A DNA stretch of 64,000 nt, from positions 24,400 to 88,399 of the IMG/VR virus record IMGVR_UViG_3300032233_001498; one strand, 5' to 3'. The position numbers and the translations under genes are program-made. The DNA comes from a virus (Duplodnaviria > Caudoviricetes). Under the pieces are notes generated by a model that was not told the DNA's origin, did not search any database, and was given only the letters and a program-made list of their open reading frames with translations. Positions 602 to 63,997 of the stretch are shown here, one piece after another; the first letter of the stretch is position 1, and every line of letters starts with the position of its first letter.

Positions 602-2310
602 TAATTTTTAGAAAATTAAGATGGAAGAATTTTCTTTCAACCGGTAATTACTATACAGAATTACAATTAGACCAAGAAGCAAATACACTAGTAGTTGGTT
701 CAAACGGGTCAGGTAAGAGCACTATGCTAGATGCATTGTGCTTTTCTTTGTTTGGCAAACCATTTCGTGATATCAACAAACCACAATTGATTAACTCTAT
801 CAATGGTAAAGATTGTATTGTTGAAGTTGAGTTTGATGTAGGCAACAAATCATATAAGATTGTTCGTGCAATTAAACCTAACAGATTTGAAATCTATGTG
901 AATGGTGAACTACTGAACCAAGATGCCGCAGTACGTGACTACCAAGAACACCTTGAGAAGTTTATTCTTAAACTGAATTACAAATCATTTACTCAAATTG
1001 TTATCTTGGGTAGCGCTTCGTTTGTGCCGTTCATGCAATTGAAACCTGGTGACCGCAGAGAAATCATTGAAGACTTACTTGACATTCAAATCTTTAGTGC
1101 CATGAATACGGTACTCAAAGACAAGATGACAAACAACAAGGACTTAATGATTTCTAAGAAGTATGACATTGACTTGAATGAACAGAAACTTGAAATGCAT
1201 AAATTGCATATCAACGAGCAGAAACAAAACAATGATGTGAAAGTAAAACAATATGATGATGAGATACAAAGTAATCAGAGTGTGGTACAAACCATACATG
1301 AAGAAATTGGCCGACTTACACAAACTGTATCGGAACTCTCCGAACAAGTCATTAGCAAGAGTGAAATTGAGACTAAGGTCAAGACGTTTAATAAACTTGA
1401 ATCTCAAATTGAAAGCAACTTATCCAAATTTCGAAAAGATATACGTTTCTTTGACACAAATGATAGTTGTCCAACGTGTAGGCAGGCCATTGCCTTGGAG
1501 TTTAAGGAGACGGAGCTTACCGGTCTCACCAACAAGGTCGAGAAATGTGAACATGGTCTCAGCGAGCTTGAACAAAAACTAATTGTTGAACAAGATAAAC
1601 TGAATGTTATTGCAGATATTCAGAGACAGATTCAAATAAATCAAGTTGAGATTGCAACAAAGAATACCACTATTACCGAAACGAATAAGTATATTTCTAA
1701 GTTGCAAAAAGAAATCAAGACACTAACTGAGAAGAAAGAAAGTTCAGTTACAGAAGAATCACAGTTAACAATTCTAAATGATACGTTGACAACAATGAAG
1801 GCTGACTTGAAGGCATTGATTGATGAGAAGACTTATTATGAAGTTGCCTCAAACTTGTTAAAAGATACAGGTATCAAAACGAAGATTATTCGTCAGTACT
1901 TGCCTATCATTAATAAGTTGGTGAACAAACACTTGGCAACATTGGACTTCTTTGTTAACTTTAACCTTGATGAAAGTTTCAAAGAAACAATTAAGTCCCG
2001 TCACCGTGATGAATTCAGTTACGCATCATTTAGTGAAGGTGAGAAACAACGTATTGACATGGCACTTATGTTGACATGGCGTGCAGTTGCAAAATTAAAG
2101 AACTCAGCAAATACAAACTTGTTGATTTTGGATGAAGTGTTTGATAGTAGTCTCGACACCAATGGTACAGAATACTTGATGAACATTTTACAGATGTTAG
2201 AGAATGTGAATCTTTTTGTTATCTCTCATAAGGGTGATATACTACAAGATAAATTTAGAAGTGTGATTCGTTTTGATAAAGTTAAGAATTTTTCGAGGAT
2301 TGTAAAATGA
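598..2310 (+). CDS. gp46: Recombination ATPase gp46 (Rad50/SbcC-like)
   Basis: Walker A GSNGSGKST, coiled coil with CPTC zinc hook, FSEGEKQRID signature, Walker B LILDE. Confidence 0.96.
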   Translation: MIIFRKLRWKNFLSTGNYYTELQLDQEANTLVVGSNGSGKSTMLDALCFSLFGKPFRDINKPQLINSINGKDCIVEVEFDVGNKSYKIVRAIKPNRFEIYVNGELLNQDAAVRDYQEHLEKFILKLNYKSFTQIVILGSASFVPFMQLKPGDRREIIEDLLDIQIFSAMNTVLKDKMTNNKDLMISKKYDIDLNEQKLEMHKLHINEQKQNNDVKVKQYDDEIQSNQSVVQTIHEEIGRLTQTVSELSEQVISKSEIETKVKTFNKLESQIESNLSKFRKDIRFFDTNDSCPTCRQAIALEFKETELTGLTNKVEKCEHGLSELEQKLIVEQDKLNVIADIQRQIQINQVEIATKNTTITETNKYISKLQKEIKTLTEKKESSVTEESQLTILNDTLTTMKADLKALIDEKTYYEVASNLLKDTGIKTKIIRQYLPIINKLVNKHLATLDFFVNFNLDESFKETIKSRHRDEFSYASFSEGEKQRIDMALMLTWRAVAKLKNSANTNLLILDEVFDSSLDTNGTEYLMNILQMLENVNLFVISHKGDILQDKFRSVIRFDKVKNFSRIVK

Positions 2311-2879
2311 GTGAAGTGTTAACGTTTAATACCGAAAGTGGTATTGTACAAGAGGAAGAGATTCTACCTCTTCAAGTACTAGATGAGAATTTTCCTGGCC
2401 TACGTTCTAGTTTGCCAGAAATTGATGTGACTGCATTACCTAATAATGTAACTACTAATTTGGTCAAGCGATTGAAAATGACCATGAAGTTGTATAATGG
2501 ATTAGGTCTTTCGGCAAGTCAATGCGGCATTATGCAAAGAGTTTTTGTTATCGGTACAGACCAGTTTCAAATTGCCTGTATCAATCCTAAAATTGTTTCA
2601 AGTAAGGCAGAAGTTGCAAAAGACAAAGAAGGTTGCCTCTCTTTTCCAGGTTTATCGCTTATAATAGAAAGACCAAAAAGTATTGATGTTGAGTTCTATA
2701 CCGAAAACGGTGAACTCAAACAGATGACACTTGATGGATTGACTGCAAGATGTTTTCAACATGAACTAGACCACCTGAATGGTATTCGGATGACTGAGCA
2801 TGTTAAACCACTTGCATTACAGATGGCTCGAAAAAGACAAAGCAAATTGATTAAACAATACGTGAAAAGATTAAAATAA
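2307..2879 (+). CDS. def: Peptide deformylase
   Basis: GLGLSASQCG, EGCLSFP and QHELDHLNG motifs. Confidence 0.95.
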   Translation: MSEVLTFNTESGIVQEEEILPLQVLDENFPGLRSSLPEIDVTALPNNVTTNLVKRLKMTMKLYNGLGLSASQCGIMQRVFVIGTDQFQIACINPKIVSSKAEVAKDKEGCLSFPGLSLIIERPKSIDVEFYTENGELKQMTLDGLTARCFQHELDHLNGIRMTEHVKPLALQMARKRQSKLIKQYVKRLK

Positions 2880-4216
2880 TGGCATTCTCATTTGACCCAA
2901 AAGATGACGTAGAAACTCAATGGCTGAAATGGCAAGAAACAAATCCTGCCGATTCATTCATTGATGTTGACGAAGGTAAACTTAAAGAACAGGTTATCTC
3001 CGACTTGTCGTATGTCTCTCAGATGGATGTCAAAGAATATACCTTATATCAAAAGTGGTGTGAGATTCATCAGAAGTATCCAACATTTACCAACAACACA
3101 TTGTTTGGTGAAGAGGTACAACTTTTAGACCCATCACAACAAAAGTTCATTGATGAAATCAAGTCGAACATTTGGATTCCTACCGCACCAGAAGACTATG
3201 TAAATTTGAAACCAATTCTTGTATACACGGATGATTCTGGTTCGATTATGTCAACAGGAATCGATGGCTCAGAAGTTAAGATTGATACGAAACGTAGTAA
3301 CTTACCGGAAGTATGGAACACGATTCGTAATTTCATTTCTACAATGAAGAACAACAGCAACATTGGGCGCAACTTAAACTTCCTTGCAATGGATGAGATT
3401 ACTGGCAAATATATTGGTGTTGTCTGTATAAGTTCCGATTTCCTTGATTTAACTCCACGTGACAACACTATCGGTTGGAAACGTGAATTGAAAACACAAG
3501 GCGGCATGATTAATCATACTGCGATTGGTTCCACAATTGTTCCATTCCAACCACTTGGTTATAACTATGTTGGTGGCAAACTGCTTGCCCTCTTATGTCT
3601 ATCAGACGAGGTTCAACGTTTGTGGAAGAAACAATACGGTGATACATTAGTTGGTGTTACAACAACATCACTCTATGGTAAAACTAAGGCAGGTGGACTA
3701 TCACAGTATGATAACTTAGACCATTGGTTGCCAATGGGTTTTTCAAGTGGTTCTGTATCATTTGAACCTGAACGTGAGACACGTTATCTTATTCGTGAGT
3801 GGTTGAAAAAGAATCACACACGTAGATACTTTGAATGGTATATTGCAAAGAAAGCATCAGGTCAACCACATAAGCGTGACCATAAGAATCGTTCATTGAA
3901 TTTCACTTATTCTAAGTTGAATATTCCTAAAGAAATCATTCGTGCTGAACATCACCGTGGTATTTACTTTAGTCCACTTTACAATAATACCTATGAGTTC
4001 TTACGTGGTGAAATTAAAGAAGACCAATTGGTGAAATCTTTCGACACATCATATGATGCCCTCGTTTCAATTTGGAAAAACAAGTTGGTAAAAGGACGCA
4101 TTAAACAATTGGTGAAGAAAGGTAATGTTTCATATGAAACACTTTTCTATGATGATTTGATTTACCTGTCATGGGAAGAAACTAAGGCAAAGTATCTGTC
4201 ACAAGTCGGCAGATGA
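2879..4216 (+). CDS. DUF4338/DruA-like protein (predicted Mom/GNAT-like fold), paralog 1
   Basis: IVPFQPLGYNYVGGKLLALL...W..QYG...TTTSLYG...SQYD block, shared with 24156..25271; family recognised by eye. Confidence 0.65.
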   Translation: MAFSFDPKDDVETQWLKWQETNPADSFIDVDEGKLKEQVISDLSYVSQMDVKEYTLYQKWCEIHQKYPTFTNNTLFGEEVQLLDPSQQKFIDEIKSNIWIPTAPEDYVNLKPILVYTDDSGSIMSTGIDGSEVKIDTKRSNLPEVWNTIRNFISTMKNNSNIGRNLNFLAMDEITGKYIGVVCISSDFLDLTPRDNTIGWKRELKTQGGMINHTAIGSTIVPFQPLGYNYVGGKLLALLCLSDEVQRLWKKQYGDTLVGVTTTSLYGKTKAGGLSQYDNLDHWLPMGFSSGSVSFEPERETRYLIREWLKKNHTRRYFEWYIAKKASGQPHKRDHKNRSLNFTYSKLNIPKEIIRAEHHRGIYFSPLYNNTYEFLRGEIKEDQLVKSFDTSYDALVSIWKNKLVKGRIKQLVKKGNVSYETLFYDDLIYLSWEETKAKYLSQVGR

Positions 4217-4228
4217 TGAAAATAGTGG

Positions 4229-4258
4229 TTGCTTTTCATATTAGAAAGCCTATATAAT
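4229..4258 (+). promoter_or_regulatory. Sigma70-type promoter for the tRNA-like RNA
   Basis: TTGCTT (4229-4234), 18-bp spacer, TATAAT (4253-4258), 9 nt before the RNA 5' end. Confidence 0.7.
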
Positions 4259-4267
4259 TATATCAAT

Positions 4268-4334
4268 GCGGTTGTTGTAGAACAGTTCAGGTGTCCAACT
4301 TGAACGGTATGTGCGAATCATACAAACCGCTCCA
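4268..4334 (+). tRNA. Atypical tRNA-Gly(TCC)-like RNA with reduced D-arm, probably non-proteinogenic
   Basis: GCGGTT/AACCGC acceptor stem, U73, encoded CCA; T-arm GTATG-TGCGAAT-CATAC; anticodon arm GTTCAGG-TGTCCAA-CTTGAAC; 67 nt. Confidence 0.8.
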
Positions 4335-4349
4335 AATTCACAAGTTAAG

Positions 4350-4382
4350 AGACTGTTGCGTAAAAACAACAGTCTTTTTTTT
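4350..4382 (+). terminator. Intrinsic terminator after the tRNA-like RNA; also contains a TGTTG-N8-CAACA box
   Basis: AGACTGTTG/CAACAGTCT stem followed by a T run. Confidence 0.7.
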
Positions 4383-4385
4383 CGC

Positions 4386-4414
4386 TTGCCTTACCCATTA
4401 CCTTGTGTTATACT
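4386..4414 (+). promoter_or_regulatory. Sigma70-type promoter
   Basis: TTGCCT-N17-TATACT with TG extension. Confidence 0.7.
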
Positions 4415-4439
4415 GGTCTTTTGAGTTGAGGACTATAAC

Positions 4440-4637
4440 ATGATTGATAACGATTATTCCCATACCCTCTTGGAGCAAGAGGAACAACGGTTCCATTTTA
4501 GTACTTTTGATGTACAAGATGCATTCTTGACCTTTTCGGTCAAGAATATACTTGATGAGGTGCGTAAAAATCCTGTTATAAATCAACAGCTTACAGATTA
4601 CCTAAAAACGCTTGACATTGCTGAGGAAGTGTGTTAG
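4440..4637 (+). CDS. Hypothetical protein
   Basis: GAGG RBS, downstream of promoter, fills the gap. Confidence 0.55.
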   Translation: MIDNDYSHTLLEQEEQRFHFSTFDVQDAFLTFSVKNILDEVRKNPVINQQLTDYLKTLDIAEEVC

Positions 4638-4668
4638 GATAGAGGTATAGAAAATAAAAAAGGCAATT

Positions 4669-7020
4669 ATGACTACATTTTCAGTAGAATCTAAGTCTCA
4701 GCTGGCCAAGTTGTTGGCCACAGAAAACTTGAGCATTCAACACCAAAAAATTTCAACAGCACGGTTTGACCCTAAGAACCGTGTTTTATATTGTCCTATT
4801 TGGCAAGATATGTCTGGTGACATGTATGATTTGCTAATGGGTCATGAGGTTGGTCATGCACTTGAAACACCTGCTGAAGGCTGGCATGATGCTGTTACAG
4901 TTGGTAATAAAGGCAAAAACTATAAACACTTTTTGAATGTGGTTGAAGATGCCCGTATCGAAAAGAAAATCAAACGCCGTTATCCAGGTCTCCGTGCTTC
5001 GTTTGTACGTGGTTATAAAAACCTGCTTGACCGTGATTTTTTTGGCATTATTAATAAAGATGTTAATCAATTGCCTTTCGTTGACCGATTGAATCTTTAT
5101 ACAAAAGGTGGTACTCAATTGGGTATCGAATTCAATCAAGAGGAAACTACATTACTTAACCGTGTTGAAAATTGTGAAACATGGCAAGATGTGCTTGATG
5201 TTACCGGTGCAGTATTCGATTATTCAAAAGATGAACAGTTTAATATTCAACAAGAAAGTTTTGCATCATACAAATTCGATTACAATGATAGTGAGTTTGA
5301 TGATGAATTCGAAAATGATGATTATGATTATGATTCTCAGGAATCTAATACCGAAGAGGATGAAAATTCTGATAATGAAGAAGGCAATGGTGATGACGGT
5401 GATGCCCAATCTGTAGATGAGGAACATGATGCTACTCAACAAAAATCTAAAAAATCTGATGGTGAAGCTGATGAATCTAAAGAAAATATTGATTCGGACA
5501 AAAGTTCACAATTGAATCGTTATAAAGATTCTTCTGAATCTAAACGTGACCAGTTTGAACCAACTTGTTCTACTGATGAATCATTTCGTGAAAATGAAAC
5601 TGCTTTACTTGATGCTCAATGTAAAGAATATGTTTATGTTGATATGCCTAAACCTATTCTCAAAAACATTTTGACACCATATAAGCGTGTACATCAATTG
5701 CTCGAAGACCATTATAAAATGTATGATAGAGTTGATGCTAACAAATTATATAATGAATTCAAACAAAAGAATGACCGTTATGTTGGTTTATTGGCAAAAG
5801 AATTTGAAATGAAAAAGGCCGCACGTGCCTATTCTAAAACTAAAACTGCCAATACTGGTGATATTGATATTTCTCGCTTGTACAAATATCAAGTTGATGA
5901 TAATATCTTTCGTAAAATGCAACGTACACCAAAAGGTAAATCACATGGTTTAGTTCTTTTACTTGACCGTTCTGGTTCTATGTCTGATAATATGGCAGGT
6001 TCGTTGGAACAGATTATGGTCTTGGCATTGTTTTGTCGCAAAGTGAATATTCCTTTTGTTGTATATGGTTTTGGTGATTGTGATGAATCTCGCCGTTTGG
6101 ATTTCCCAAATGTAAAACAAGAGAAAACATTCGAAGAAAAAGTTGGTTCGCTTGCAATTAGTAATGTTTATTTACGTGAATACATTAATTCACGCATGGG
6201 CAATGCAGAGTTTACTCGCTGTATGAAAAACTTGTCTGTATTAAAACATTCATATGAGAATCGTTATGCACATTACTTGCGTCCTCAATCTGAACATCTT
6301 TCCAATACACCTTTGATACAAGCCATGATTGCATTGCGTCCACTTGTAAATGATTTCCGCAAAATGAATAATCTTGATTTGGTTAACCTTGTTGTTGTGA
6401 ATGATGGTGATGCCGATAATTGCAATAGTAAAATAGATATTTACCGTTACCCTAATGGCACAGAAACACTTGCAAGGCGAGGTTTCGATAATCGAACACA
6501 AAATGTAATTTTGCGTGATGATGTAAGCAAATTGACAATTACATTACGTTCAGAAGCACCAAATGGTCACTATGATGATGCTGTACGTGCAGGTATTTTT
6601 GATTGGTTCCGTGCTGTAACTGGTGCAAAGATTTTTGGTTTCTTTATTGCTGGCCAAAATCGTTCTTTGCGTCAATCGCTTTGTGCTAAGTATGTTTATT
6701 CTGACGGTACTACCGTGTATGACAAACTAGGTATTCCACGTAATGCACGCCGCTGGAATTTTAATCCACAAGGACATGATATCACTAAAGACCTTGCTAA
6801 GACTTTGGTGAAAAATAAATTTGTACAATCATATAATAATGGTTACAATTCTTTCTTTATTATTCCTGGTGGTGCTGAACTTGCCGTTCAAAATGATGAG
6901 TTGCAAGTTGAAGGTAAAGTTACCGCAAGCAAGTTGAAGACGGCATTTTTGAAAATGTCTAAGGCAAAACAAGTGAACCGAGTACTGGTTTCTAAGTTTA
7001 TTGAAGGCATTGCTGCCTAA
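4669..7020 (+). CDS. VWA-domain protein with N-terminal HExxH metallopeptidase-like domain (CobT-like partner of a MoxR ATPase)
   Basis: HEVGH and VEDARIEK; acidic linker; MIDAS LLDRSGSM. Confidence 0.85.
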   Translation: MTTFSVESKSQLAKLLATENLSIQHQKISTARFDPKNRVLYCPIWQDMSGDMYDLLMGHEVGHALETPAEGWHDAVTVGNKGKNYKHFLNVVEDARIEKKIKRRYPGLRASFVRGYKNLLDRDFFGIINKDVNQLPFVDRLNLYTKGGTQLGIEFNQEETTLLNRVENCETWQDVLDVTGAVFDYSKDEQFNIQQESFASYKFDYNDSEFDDEFENDDYDYDSQESNTEEDENSDNEEGNGDDGDAQSVDEEHDATQQKSKKSDGEADESKENIDSDKSSQLNRYKDSSESKRDQFEPTCSTDESFRENETALLDAQCKEYVYVDMPKPILKNILTPYKRVHQLLEDHYKMYDRVDANKLYNEFKQKNDRYVGLLAKEFEMKKAARAYSKTKTANTGDIDISRLYKYQVDDNIFRKMQRTPKGKSHGLVLLLDRSGSMSDNMAGSLEQIMVLALFCRKVNIPFVVYGFGDCDESRRLDFPNVKQEKTFEEKVGSLAISNVYLREYINSRMGNAEFTRCMKNLSVLKHSYENRYAHYLRPQSEHLSNTPLIQAMIALRPLVNDFRKMNNLDLVNLVVVNDGDADNCNSKIDIYRYPNGTETLARRGFDNRTQNVILRDDVSKLTITLRSEAPNGHYDDAVRAGIFDWFRAVTGAKIFGFFIAGQNRSLRQSLCAKYVYSDGTTVYDKLGIPRNARRWNFNPQGHDITKDLAKTLVKNKFVQSYNNGYNSFFIIPGGAELAVQNDELQVEGKVTASKLKTAFLKMSKAKQVNRVLVSKFIEGIAA

Positions 7021-17021: not shown

Positions 17022-17095
17022 AGCGGATTAGTGAAACGGTATCACAAAGGACTCATAATCCTTAATTCCTAGTTCGAATCTGGGGTCCGCAACCA
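17022..17095 (+). tRNA. tRNA-Met(CAT)
   Basis: Full cloverleaf; AAGGA-CTCATAA-TCCTT anticodon arm; TTCGAAT T-loop; encoded CCA; 1:72 mismatch. Confidence 0.92.
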
Positions 17096-23557: not shown

Positions 23558-24159
23558 AACACATAACTCTTTACAAAAAACTCCATGCATTTGCACCAAA
23601 ATTATACGGTGAGAAAACTACGGGTCAATTGATGTATTGGGTTAGAAAGATGTTAACACCGCACAAGGTCAAAGTAAATCGAATCATTGATAAGAAAAAC
23701 TTGGCATTGAGTGGTTATACGATAGGTGGTTTCTACGATTCAACAGGTGAGTTTGGTGATAAAGACATTGAAATGTATCTTGTTTTCAATGAAGAAGATA
23801 AGAACAAAACATTTCTGTTTGAAGAGTGGAGTGTTAAGATGTTGATTGATGAATTGTTTATCACACTTGCACATGAGAAACGACACCGTTATCAATTCAA
23901 ACAAAGAGGCAATGCTTTTGGTCCACAATATCGAAGCAAAGTTACCGATGAAGATTTGAAGGCAGAGTTGGAATATTACGGTGACCCCGATGAGTTGGAT
24001 GCCTATGCACAAGAAGCAATCATCGAGGAGAGATTAGGTAGAGATACGCTAATGGGTGCTCAGGCAAAGTACAGACAAATGTTTGCCAATTATGACCCAA
24101 AAGTGTATAATAAATTCTTGAAGAAAAAATATAAATTTGACCAAAAAGTTTCATTATGA
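23554..24159 (+). CDS. HExxH zinc metallopeptidase-like protein
   Basis: LAHEKRHRYQ followed by Y...DELDAYA. Confidence 0.55.
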   Translation: MKHITLYKKLHAFAPKLYGEKTTGQLMYWVRKMLTPHKVKVNRIIDKKNLALSGYTIGGFYDSTGEFGDKDIEMYLVFNEEDKNKTFLFEEWSVKMLIDELFITLAHEKRHRYQFKQRGNAFGPQYRSKVTDEDLKAELEYYGDPDELDAYAQEAIIEERLGRDTLMGAQAKYRQMFANYDPKVYNKFLKKKYKFDQKVSL

Positions 24160-25271
24160 ATTTAACTAAAGAGCAGGCAATCCATGGTGCCAATGTATTC
24201 TCAGACTACTTTGATAGGTTTGGTCGTATCGATGAGTACATGCGTGAACAGAAACTAACTGCGATGGCCGAAAGGCCATTCGTTCTTCCTGGCATGGGAC
24301 CTGAAGAAGATTTGTTCTCTGATTTTTCTATGTCACCTGCTGACATGGATTTTGAGATTGTGGAGTTGCCGCAAGAACGTTGGGACACTTATCTCAATAT
24401 GATTTCAAGTCACTCAAACATGACCAGTATTCCTGGTCGTTGCTTGCGCCTTGCTGTATTTGAAAAGAAAACACAGAAGTGGTGTGGTTTCATTCGCCTT
24501 GGTTCACCAGTTATCAATTGTAAACCACGTAACGAAATGTTAGGTGAAGTCTTTACTCAACGTGACGGCGGCGCCCAACAGTTCAACAAGTGTGCAATCA
24601 TGGGTTTCGTAATTGTACCTGCACAACCATTCGGTTTCAATTATCTTGGTGGTAAGTTACTTGCTGCTATCTGCACATCACATGAAGTACGTAAGATGAT
24701 GAACGCCAAATATAACATGACCACATGTCTGTTTGAGACCACATCACTCTATGGTTCATCTAAGACTGTATCACAATATGATGGTATGAAACCTCTGATT
24801 CGTTTCAAAGGCTTGACTGATAGTGACTTCTTGCCTATGTTGCACGGCAAAACATATACAGACTTAAAAGACTACATTGAGAACATTACAGGCGAACCAC
24901 TTGCACCACTAGATGCTTCTAGTCGTAAGTTGAAAATATCAAATGCAATGGTTGGCATGATTAAAGTTGCACTCAAAGGCAAACCAGAAGGTGAGAAGTT
25001 TGCAAAAACTATTGAGAATGCAAAGAATCTAAACGAACAAAAACGTTATTTTGTTTCTGATTATGGTTTTAAGAACATGGTTGACGTAGTGAATGGTAAG
25101 GCAGATAAGTTGATTCCAGGTGAAAACTATGAGAAACACAATCTAGCCAATATTGTGGAGTGGTGGAGAAAGAAGGCCATCAACCGATTTGATACTTTGA
25201 ATATAGAAGGTCGCATTCGTACTGAACAAGAGGTCTGGACAGGCGATAAACATATTGACATTATTAGGTGA
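24156..25271 (+). CDS. DUF4338/DruA-like protein, paralog 2
   Basis: IVPAQPFGFNYLGGKLLAAI...ETTSLYG...SQYD, aligns with 2879..4216. Confidence 0.65.
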   Translation: MNLTKEQAIHGANVFSDYFDRFGRIDEYMREQKLTAMAERPFVLPGMGPEEDLFSDFSMSPADMDFEIVELPQERWDTYLNMISSHSNMTSIPGRCLRLAVFEKKTQKWCGFIRLGSPVINCKPRNEMLGEVFTQRDGGAQQFNKCAIMGFVIVPAQPFGFNYLGGKLLAAICTSHEVRKMMNAKYNMTTCLFETTSLYGSSKTVSQYDGMKPLIRFKGLTDSDFLPMLHGKTYTDLKDYIENITGEPLAPLDASSRKLKISNAMVGMIKVALKGKPEGEKFAKTIENAKNLNEQKRYFVSDYGFKNMVDVVNGKADKLIPGENYEKHNLANIVEWWRKKAINRFDTLNIEGRIRTEQEVWTGDKHIDIIR

Positions 25272-63923: not shown

Positions 63924-63997
63924 TGGGGATTTGTGTAGTGGTAGCACAGCGGCCTTTGAAGCCGTTAGTACAAGTTCGATTCTTGTATCCCCTGCCA
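63924..63997 (+). tRNA. tRNA-Gln(TTG)
   Basis: Full cloverleaf; GCGGC-CTTTGAA-GCCGT; TTCGATT T-loop; G73; encoded CCA. Confidence 0.93.

Follow-up and report, generated by a model that had tools for sequence, protein, structure and literature searches.

The locus analyzed here raised the question of whether a phage can supply its own glycine carrier to an enzyme encoded next to it. In the 64,000-nt window, which is the whole stretch of DNA that was analyzed and part of an 88-kb record that is 51% complete, a gene for a 445-aa protein of the DruA family (formerly DUF4338; 2879..4216, plus strand) was followed, after a spacer of 51 nt, by a 67-nt RNA that resembled tRNA-Gly (4268..4334, plus strand). 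The source of the locus was an uncultured, aquatic, T4-like phage, and the hosts were likely to be SAR11-like bacteria, not staphylococci. The neighbors of the DruA-family gene were ordinary T4-like early genes: an SMC/Rad50-like ATPase, a peptide deformylase, a 783-aa protein whose pelagiphage homologs were annotated as peptidases, and a CobS-like AAA protein.

The predicted fold of the mini RNA consisted of an acceptor stem (4268-4273 with 4325-4330), a 3-bp D hairpin (4274-4283), an 8-bp anticodon-type stem (4285-4292 with 4298-4305) around the loop GUCCA, and a T arm (4307-4323) with the loop UGCGAAU, followed by the discriminator U73 (4331) and an encoded CCA (4332-4334), all on the plus strand. 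The fold energy was -22.2 kcal/mol (z = -3.0 versus shuffles). The acceptor pairs were G1-C72, C2-G71, G3-C70, G4-C69, U5-A68, and U6-A67, and G7 faced A66. The D arm was replaced by 10 nt without GG, which formed the 3-bp hairpin with a 4-nt loop. The T stem, GUAUG/CAUAC, contained an A-U pair at 51:63, and positions 53 to 56 read G53-U54-G55-C56. The middle loop, UGUCCAA, gave the anticodon UCC with G33 when it was read as 7 nt; RNAfold paired U32 with A38 and left a 5-nt loop. Hence, among the features of a canonical tRNA, the acceptor stem, the T arm with G53:C61 and U54/A58, the discriminator, and the CCA were kept, and G18G19, U55, and the 7-nt anticodon loop with U33 were lost. The bacterial glycine identity set consists of U73, G1-C72, C2-G71, C35, and C36 (PMC9976931), and this set was complete in the mini RNA, which also had G3-C70, with C35 and C36 at 4295-4296 (plus strand).

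Standard tools passed over the RNA. ARAGORN called no tRNA at this position, and the Rfam tRNA model (RF00005) produced no match there at E <= 10 and none in the whole record at E <= 1. The pattern GCGG...CCGCUCCA had its single match in the 88-kb record at 4268-4334. A strict mini-tRNA scan of the window, which misses mini RNAs in tRNA arrays and which mini RNAs for other amino acids may escape, returned this RNA and one other hit, which lay within an ORF and was probably due to chance (0.35 expected).

The region around the RNA also contained putative expression signals. A promoter-like site (4229..4258, plus strand) comprised the -35 sequence TTGCTT (4229-4234), an 18-nt spacer, and a perfect -10 sequence, TATAAT (4253-4258), located 9 nt upstream of G1. 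From this site, the RNA is predicted to start 2-3 nt before G1. The site failed a consensus promoter scan because of its weak -35 sequence. In related contigs, a TATAAT-like -10 sequence was found 5-13 nt upstream in 34 of 75 pattern-matched copies, a few of which are chance matches, and the modal distance was 9 nt. The related loci with a -10 sequence at the same distance included many with TTGACA or TTGACT as the -35 box. On the other side of the RNA, a terminator scan identified an intrinsic-terminator-like hairpin of 12 pairs (4347-4378, plus strand) with a T run to 4382, which is predicted to end the mini RNA transcript; two terminator-like sites were present in 4100-4700, compared to 0.2 expected from shuffles.

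A sequence-only reading had already described much of this locus. It placed the RNA 52 nt past the DruA stop codon, which is 1 nt more than we measured, and it was right about the 67-nt extent at 4268-4334, the putative terminator, the GlyRS identity set with U73 and CCA, a D arm of 10-12 nt without GG, GTGC in the T-loop, the 7:66 G.A mismatch, and the 51:63 A:U pair. The G that it assigned to position 33 holds when the loop is read as 7 nt. It had also credited the RNA with its own promoter, which is backed by the perfect, recurrent TATAAT but not by the -35 sequence or the promoter scan.

Conservation data indicated that the RNA is more than a local oddity. The mini RNA was present in >100 related phage contigs. 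The RNA model R1, which scored the window RNA at 77.2 bits (E 3e-18), found full-length homologs in 43 related loci and one homolog cut by a contig end, and a pattern scan of IMG/VR added 41 loci with a mini RNA. Standard pairs occupied 96.5% of pair cells, compared to ~40% when the partners were slid, and compensatory changes occurred at 16 of the 22 pairs, including those of the T stem, a result that was equaled by none of 500 shuffles. When the homologs were folded singly, most adopted the identical four-helix shape. They were 63-69 nt long; the 3-bp D stem carried a loop of 3-4 nt, the anticodon stem had 8-9 bp, and the predicted anticodon loops of 4-6 nt had an extra closing pair and often no U33. 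G18G19 and U55 were missing throughout. Across 32 distinct sequences, G1 C2 G3 G4, the loop CC, G53:C61, A58, and CCGC-U-CCA were invariant, and position 34 was U, A, or C.

Because homologous loci carried the mini RNA with stem covariation, we ruled out a decaying tRNA pseudogene. In 12 sister loci, a canonical tRNA-Gly(UCC) was located 1-7 nt from the mini RNA. The two forms coexist, and the mini RNA is therefore likely to be a second, non-decoding glycine tRNA. Comparative sequence evidence thus supported the view that the mini RNA is genuine and conserved and derives from tRNA-Gly, having kept its glycine identity and lost the features used in translation. In the pelagiphage Mosig, the RNA was annotated as a 31-aa ORF, and in HTVC008M it was left unannotated, although ARAGORN called the 74-nt HTVC008M relative a tRNA-Gly(ACC). 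Two motifs common to pelagiphage spacers, GTAGAACA and GTGCGA, were discarded as candidates, as the true pelagiphage RNAs lie elsewhere.

A precedent for such an RNA exists in staphylococci, in which the NP1-NP3 tRNA-Gly species are donors for pentaglycine synthesis by FmhB, FemA, and FemB. The S. aureus NP1-3 species have lost G18G19 and U55, their D stem has 3 bp, and an additional pair shortens the anticodon loop (PMC13443448); the phage RNA shares these four traits, as the likeness proposed from the sequence alone had implied. In both cases, the RNA is an extra species beside decoding isoacceptors. The phage RNA differs in that it is virus encoded, far more reduced, and variable at position 34. 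In addition, the staphylococcal system uses Fem enzymes, whereas a Fem-family gene was absent from the 88-kb record of the phage. The likeness is one of shared traits, and it may or may not reflect common descent.

We then considered the enzyme. The 2879..4216 product was a member of Pfam family PF14236 (DruA; E 2.9e-18, 66.5 bits, cut-off 27) and matched the PADLOC DruA model PDLC00002 (E 4.3e-16), in keeping with the earlier DUF4338-like call. Its AF2 model (pLDDT 93.3, pTM 0.90) had a GNAT core at about residues 106-390, and the near-invariant residues of the family were R150, R164, Q224, K234, and T263. A GNAT fold for DUF4338 has been reported (PMC10853773), in agreement with our models. 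The structural matches were GNATs without exception, and Mu Mom (8bv8) ranked at the top of two structural searches (Z 9.5 over 164 residues and Z 9.6 over 186/222). The Z lead of Mom over SpeG and other acetyl-CoA GNATs was <1, which amounts to a tie, and the predicted structure gives no cue as to whether the donor is CoA or tRNA. Foldseek against the PDB returned weak GNAT rows only (E 0.02-0.1), and searches of PDB sequences, run with the single protein and with a profile of 64 members, yielded no match; Nup58 and YjgA, which the profile hit weakly, were dismissed as noise. The N-terminal region of ~135 aa, when folded alone (pLDDT 88.9, pTM 0.53), had no match above Z 3.4, and a winged-helix guess for this region was dropped.

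Mu Mom transfers glycine from Gly-tRNA-Gly onto dA in double-stranded DNA (PMC13219725), as the sequence-only reading had stated, and the acceptor is N6 of adenine. Mom (Pfam PF25680, PDB 8BV8) and the phage DruA protein are both phage GNAT folds linked to tRNA-Gly. Mom draws on host tRNA-Gly and carries none itself, whereas the phage DruA gene adjoins a mini RNA encoded by the phage. Mom also has an HTH-like insertion and the essential residues R111, S124, and R151; the phage protein belongs to another Pfam family, is 445 aa long, and has the additional N-terminal region. At E <= 0.1, the Mom model PF25680 had no match in the 88-kb record, and hhalign gave a probability of 1.2% for the phage protein against Mu Mom and 0.08% against a 27-member Mom alignment. 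Given the failure of the profile-profile comparison and the PDB sequence searches, we rejected sequence homology to Mom. Hence, the proposal that the DUF4338 protein is a Mom-like transferase stood as far as the predicted GNAT fold, with Mom as the top match, but not beyond it.

The family context was informative about a possible target. DruA homologs elsewhere were fused to UDG and ParB_N domains, on contigs of just 3-4 kb, and a DndF fusion of a family homolog has been described (PMC10853773). Such fusions suggest that the target is DNA. Druantia type I consists of DruA (PF14236) and DruB-E, of which the DruE helicase carries a DUF1998/MZB domain; the phage protein is of the same family but is encoded alone. 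A search for MZB/DUF1998 found no match in the 51%-complete 88-kb record, and by this marker test the phage locus does not appear to be a Druantia type I system. Family searches of the same record found no match to FemAB, Acetyltransf_6, L/F-transferase, Mom, or Acetyltransf_1, and the sole matches among the GNAT-type families searched were two DruA paralogs. The second, divergent paralog (24156..25271, plus strand, 371 aa; PF14236 E 5.2e-9) corresponded to PHROG 19197 (E 2.4e-135), which is annotated as function unknown. It is a possible second user of the mini RNA or is unrelated; in three cyanophages that apparently have the second paralog only, no RNA fit the GCGG...CCGCUCCA pattern. DruA-like genes had already been noted in Synechococcus phages (bioRxiv 10.1101/2025.08.05.668817).

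One line of evidence for a link between the RNA and the enzyme is gene position. Of 83 loci, 62 had the mini RNA directly 3' of the DruA gene, and the DruA proteins of these adjacent loci were as little as ~61% identical. In one class, the RNA started 2 nt past the DruA stop codon, and in four loci, two different mini RNAs were arranged in tandem behind the gene. In many relatives, the mini RNA was in a tRNA island 7-13 kb from the DruA gene, and pelagiphages had a related, odd tRNA-Gly(ACC) 4-6 kb from it. One clade kept the DruA enzyme without the mini RNA, and in one 75%-complete genome we found the enzyme with canonical tRNA-Gly GCC and UCC but not the mini RNA. A DruA-family gene was present in all five long contigs with the RNA that were tested, one of which had the second paralog only. 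No other gene consistently adjoined the mini RNA in the related loci.

On a DruA tree (MAFFT and FastTree), the RNA-less loci and the tRNA-island loci formed one nested clade; therefore, adjacency corresponded to about one event and not to repeated convergence. It looks like one old event that was undone later in one clade. Repeated independent juxtaposition, which would have served as proof of linkage, was not borne out by the tree. Thus, of the search for the RNA in related phages that the earlier reading had proposed, recurrence with covariation came out as anticipated and linkage to DruA did so in part, and the interpretation as a whole was partly supported. The RNA-enzyme link is weaker than the case for the RNA itself.

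The reading that we favor, tentatively and at a level just short of probable, is that the phage's non-decoding tRNA-Gly is a glycine donor to the upstream DruA-family GNAT and that the target is likely phage DNA. Specifically, host RNA polymerase would transcribe the mini RNA early from its own sigma-70-type promoter. The bacterial-type GlyRS of the host would charge it with glycine, as suggested by the conservation of G1-C72, C2-G71, G3-C70, U73, C35, C36, and CCA. By analogy to staphylococcal NP tRNA-Gly, the mini RNA would then stay outside translation because it has no D-loop/T-loop elbow and no normal anticodon loop. These three steps are well supported in silico. The glycine-loaded RNA would next act as an activated-glycine donor, from which the DruA-family GNAT would move glycine to a nucleophile, most likely a base of the phage DNA, as in Mu Mom, and the modification would protect against host nucleases. 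These last two steps rest on gene adjacency, fold class, and domain fusions. As for the two-part system itself, in which the GNAT glycylates DNA or another target by means of a ribosome-shielded mini tRNA-Gly of the phage, we regard it as possible but on balance doubtful.

The alternative that survived best, although it is unlikely, is that the mini RNA is glycine loaded and non-decoding but is used by something other than DruA, with an adjacency that arose by accident in one rearrangement. The RNA might act, as a decoy or sponge, on a host factor that reads the acceptor end of Gly-tRNA-Gly, such as the TacT-type GNAT toxins, or it might be a substrate of another host or phage enzyme. The single event on the tree and the clade that has the enzyme without the RNA fit this idea, as do the many relatives in which the RNA sits beside tRNA-Gly(UCC) in a tRNA island far from DruA. 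Furthermore, the TacT identity elements, U73 and G71 (PMC9976931), are invariant in the mini RNA. However, a substrate decoy titrates an enzyme poorly, no gene other than DruA is a consistent neighbor, and DruA adjacency has survived although the loci diverged deeply, their spacers turned over, and the RNA was duplicated in tandem. The co-occurrence of a DruA-family gene in all five tested long contigs, one of which had the second paralog only, also argues against this idea.

We considered it quite improbable that DruA is a conventional acyltransferase that depends on acyl-CoA, with DNA, a protein, or a small molecule as its substrate, and that the RNA acts uncharged; in that case, the RNA might serve the processing or stability of early transcripts, for instance as an RNase P site, or mimic a tRNA in a regulatory role. 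Acyl-CoA is the donor for most GNATs, and the structural neighbors after Mom were acetyl-CoA enzymes; in addition, an RNA that begins 2 nt past a stop codon resembles a tRNA-like mRNA 3' end. Nevertheless, a processing element needs no invariant U73, C35, C36, G1-C72, and C2-G71 amid stems that otherwise covary, and it would hardly persist inside tRNA arrays. Finally, it is very improbable that the RNA is an unusual tRNA-Gly that still decodes and so adds to translation or evades a host anticodon nuclease, for although tRNA arrays with encoded CCA are common to phages of this group and ARAGORN accepts the HTVC008M relative, the predicted 4-6-nt anticodon loops, frequent loss of U33, free position 34, missing elbow, rejection by both ARAGORN and the Rfam tRNA model, and adjoining canonical tRNA-Gly(UCC) in 12 loci all stand against it.

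We found no published description of the pair formed by the mini RNA and DruA, and no report of a biochemical function for DruA/DUF4338, in the literature. The mini RNA also exposes an annotation gap, since standard tRNA finders miss it. A dedicated non-decoding tRNA-Gly is known for staphylococcal cell-wall synthesis; the phage RNA, if our reading is true, would be, to our knowledge, the first virus-encoded and much smaller version. It would also be a natural minimal GlyRS substrate of ~63-69 nt that shows what bacterial GlyRS needs from a tRNA. Pairing with the mini RNA would offer a testable function for DruA/DUF4338, a family that also contributes to Druantia type I, and it would represent a second tRNA-dependent DNA modification, unrelated to Mom. 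Druantia type II has a methylase; if the two-part reading is true, DruA would, in Druantia type I as well, mark DNA in a tRNA-dependent manner and fill the position of that methylase.

The 67-nt RNA that the sequence-only reading had placed behind the DruA gene was located at positions 4268 to 4334 of the window, starting 51 nt past the DruA-gene stop codon, and all of the base-level features listed for it were present in the sequence and the fold. In the fold of this mini RNA, the acceptor stem had 6 bp and the D arm was replaced by a hairpin of 3 bp; next came an 8-bp stem closed by the loop GUCCA and a T arm of 5 bp (loop UGCGAAU), and U-CCA formed the 3' end. The folding energy was -22.2 kcal/mol (z = -3.0), and neither ARAGORN nor Rfam recognized the RNA as a tRNA. 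The suggestion that it had its own promoter and terminator was borne out in part: a perfect TATAAT ended 9 nt upstream of G1 and a terminator-like hairpin was located downstream (positions 4347 to 4378), but the -35 element was weak and the upstream site did not pass a promoter scan.

For comparison, we took 80 IMG/VR loci with proteins that were 73 to 84% identical to the DruA gene product; with the window and two pelagiphage loci, the set comprised 83 loci. An RNA starting with GCGG and ending with CCGC-U-CCA was located behind the DruA gene in 62 of them, and the 83 loci yielded 32 distinct mini RNA sequences of 63 to 69 nt. R1, a covariance model built on 13 of these sequences, had 44 matches in the related loci (43 full-length and one truncated at the contig edge) and a single one in the window. 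In the R1 alignment, standard pairs occupied 96.5% of pair cells versus 36 to 51% when the 3' partners were slid, and compensatory changes were observed at 16 of 22 pairs, values reached by 0 of 500 shuffles; these figures were biased in favor of R1 because the alignment was fitted to the model. As an independent check, each mini RNA was folded singly, and mostly the identical four-helix shape was obtained. Thus, the search in related phages returned full-length homologues with stem covariation, and when IMG/VR was scanned with a sequence pattern and R1 was then applied, a further 41 loci with a mini RNA were identified.

The bacterial glycine identity set consists of U73, G1-C72, C2-G71, C35, and C36 (PMC9976931). 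Its retention, which had been reported for the window RNA, extended to the whole family: G1, C2, G3, and G4 with their partners, U73, CCA, G53:C61, A58, and two C's in the middle loop were invariant in all 32 sequences. In contrast, the base preceding the two C's was U, A, or C, and the loops (GUCCA, UUCCC, UACCC, CACCC, UCCCC, and CCCA) had 4 to 6 nt when the closing pair was formed. Constraint on positions 35 and 36, with position 34, loop size, and U33 left free, fits recognition by a synthetase and not codon reading. At the foot of the D hairpin, a G-C and a U-A pair may be the counterparts of G10-C25 and U11-A24, in which case G10 would be kept. The encoded CCA was not special to the mini RNA, since ordinary tRNAs in these phages had it too. 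In Staphylococcus aureus, the NP1-3 tRNA-Gly species are glycine donors to peptidoglycan synthesis (PMC13443448); their lack of G18G19, lack of U55, and extra pair shortening the anticodon loop were shared by the phage mini RNAs, in which these traits were more extreme. In 12 related loci, a canonical tRNA-Gly(UCC) was located 1 to 7 nt from the mini RNA inside the phage tRNA array, and retention of both argues for separate jobs. Judged by these sequence features, the mini RNA is probably a non-decoding tRNA-Gly that can be charged by GlyRS.

The DruA gene (positions 2879 to 4216, plus strand) encodes a 445-aa protein that matched Pfam DruA (PF14236, formerly DUF4338; E 2.9e-18) and the PADLOC DruA model. 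The AF2 model built on 64 aligned sequences was confident (pLDDT 93.3, pTM 0.90), and the GNAT fold was firm, in agreement with PMC10853773. Foldseek returned weak GNAT rows only. In a VIA-align search of 48,161 PDB representatives, the top entry was Mu Mom (8bv8_B; Z 9.5 and rmsd 3.4 over 164 aligned residues), followed by ordinary GNATs (Z 8.0 to 8.7) and FemA (Z 7.9). In a second structural comparison, Mom (Z 9.6, 186 of 222 residues aligned) was followed by SpeG (Z 9.0, about 145 aligned), a lead of less than 1 Z, which the VIA-align rule treats as a tie. Sequence comparison gave no link to Mom: the hhalign probability was 1.2% with Mu Mom and 0.08% with a Mom family profile. The earlier description of the protein as Mom-like stood as to the GNAT fold, but a closest relationship to Mom is only suggested by the structural matches. 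The N-terminal 135 residues, folded alone, showed no recognizable fold. Mom itself is documented to transfer glycine from Gly-tRNA-Gly onto N6 of dA in double-stranded DNA, followed by a rearrangement (PMC13219725), in line with the sequence-only reading.

The 88.4-kb IMG/VR virus record, of which the window forms bases 24400 to 88399, was rated 51% complete, and its closest named phages, as judged for the window, were the Pelagibacter myophages Mosig and HTVC008M. The neighbors of the DruA gene were usual T4-like early genes, encoding an SMC/Rad50-like ATPase, peptide deformylase, a 783-aa protein (annotated as "peptidase" in its pelagiphage homologues), and a CobS-like AAA protein. The peptide deformylase gene (positions 2307 to 2879, plus strand; PF01327, E 7e-38) was directly upstream and shared one base with the DruA start codon (ATAATG). 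A second, divergent DruA-family gene (positions 24156 to 25271, plus strand; 371 aa; PF14236, E 5.2e-9) matched PHROG 19197 (E 2.4e-135), a PHROG of unknown function. DruA-like proteins encoded by Synechococcus phages are noted in the literature, and in such phages the orthologue of the second paralogue was flanked by the clamp-loader genes gp44 and gp62. No RNA with the pattern GCGG...CCGCUCCA was found in three cyanophages that apparently carry the second paralogue only, which was neutral for a gene-RNA link. A tRNA-Met (positions 17022 to 17095) stood alone at the site of the relatives' tRNA island, and a tRNA-Gln (positions 63924 to 63997) ended 3 nt before the end of the record; a tRNA array, possibly including a canonical tRNA-Gly, may continue past the contig end.

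Several findings favored a link between the mini RNA and the DruA gene. The two were adjacent in 62 of the 83 loci, protein identity among adjacent loci fell to about 61%, and the spacer varied, with an own promoter, a -10 box just past the stop codon, or only 2 nt past the stop codon. Four loci (L140 4120-4259, L146 4377-4516, L108 287-430, and L133 1955-2094) had two different mini RNAs in tandem downstream of the DruA gene; the second had a UGUCCAA loop in three of the four, and the first was of the UCCCC, UUCCC, or CUCCC type. Because phages with tandem mini RNAs have two DruA paralogues, a one-to-one pairing is conceivable. All five long contigs carrying the mini RNA in an array had a DruA-family gene (an orthologue of the DruA gene in four, and only the second paralogue in one 24-kb fragment). 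In addition, the window's own record had two DruA paralogues only and no match to FemAB, Acetyltransf_6, L/F-transferase, Mom, or Acetyltransf_1.

The main rival reading accepts a chargeable, non-decoding tRNA-Gly but holds that the DruA-family GNAT is not its user, and other findings counted against the link. Non-adjacent mini RNAs were located in a tRNA island 7 to 13 kb downstream, between homologues of the window genes at about 13.8 to 16.3 kb and 16.3 to 20.7 kb. In a DruA protein tree (MAFFT and FastTree LG, 79 distinct sequences, rooted on pelagiphages, without support values), the early-branching lineages were all adjacent, and the 15 RNA-less loci and 6 island-type genomes formed one nested clade. 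The simplest history would be one move next to the DruA gene followed later by a single uncoupling; the number of adjacent loci is therefore inflated by shared ancestry. In the most complete genome of the RNA-less clade (75% complete), the enzyme was present and the mini RNA was not found; the tRNA array had more than 20 genes, including canonical tRNA-Gly GCC and UCC. The mini RNAs of L093 (6363-6429, in a tRNA island) and L043 (1528-1594, behind the DruA gene) were nearly identical (3 differences), and the DruA proteins of these phages were distant on the tree, which suggests recombinational transfer of the RNA gene from lineage to lineage. The pelagiphages carried a 74-nt relative that was less reduced and had the anticodon ACC, a D loop of 4 nt, and odd, non-TPsiC T loops; in these two cultured phages it was located at MT647606.1 7779-7852 (Mosig, L083, minus strand) and KC465899.1 91140-91213 (HTVC008M, L084, plus strand), and ARAGORN called the HTVC008M copy only. 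This RNA followed hsp20 in Mosig and cobS in HTVC008M (unannotated, between cobS and the S21 gene), and not DruA, which also counts against the link. In the Mosig annotation, the copy appears as Mosig_000011, a hypothetical protein of 31 aa. The proposed linkage to DUF4338 was upheld as frequent adjacency, but that adjacency probably had a single origin.

We found no description of the mini RNA and no reported DruA function in the literature. Metagenomic homologues of the GNAT part were fused with uracil-DNA-glycosylase-superfamily, ParB N-terminal (ParB_N), and DUF3102 domains (P0032, L217 1283-3205; P0069, L218 611-2497; P0098; P0106), and fusions to DndF are reported (PMC10853773). Because the fusion partners act on DNA, they support a DNA target for this GNAT family. 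With the findings on both sides of the link, we propose tentatively that the adjacent DruA-family GNAT could be the user of the mini tRNA-Gly; if it is, DNA would be its most likely target.
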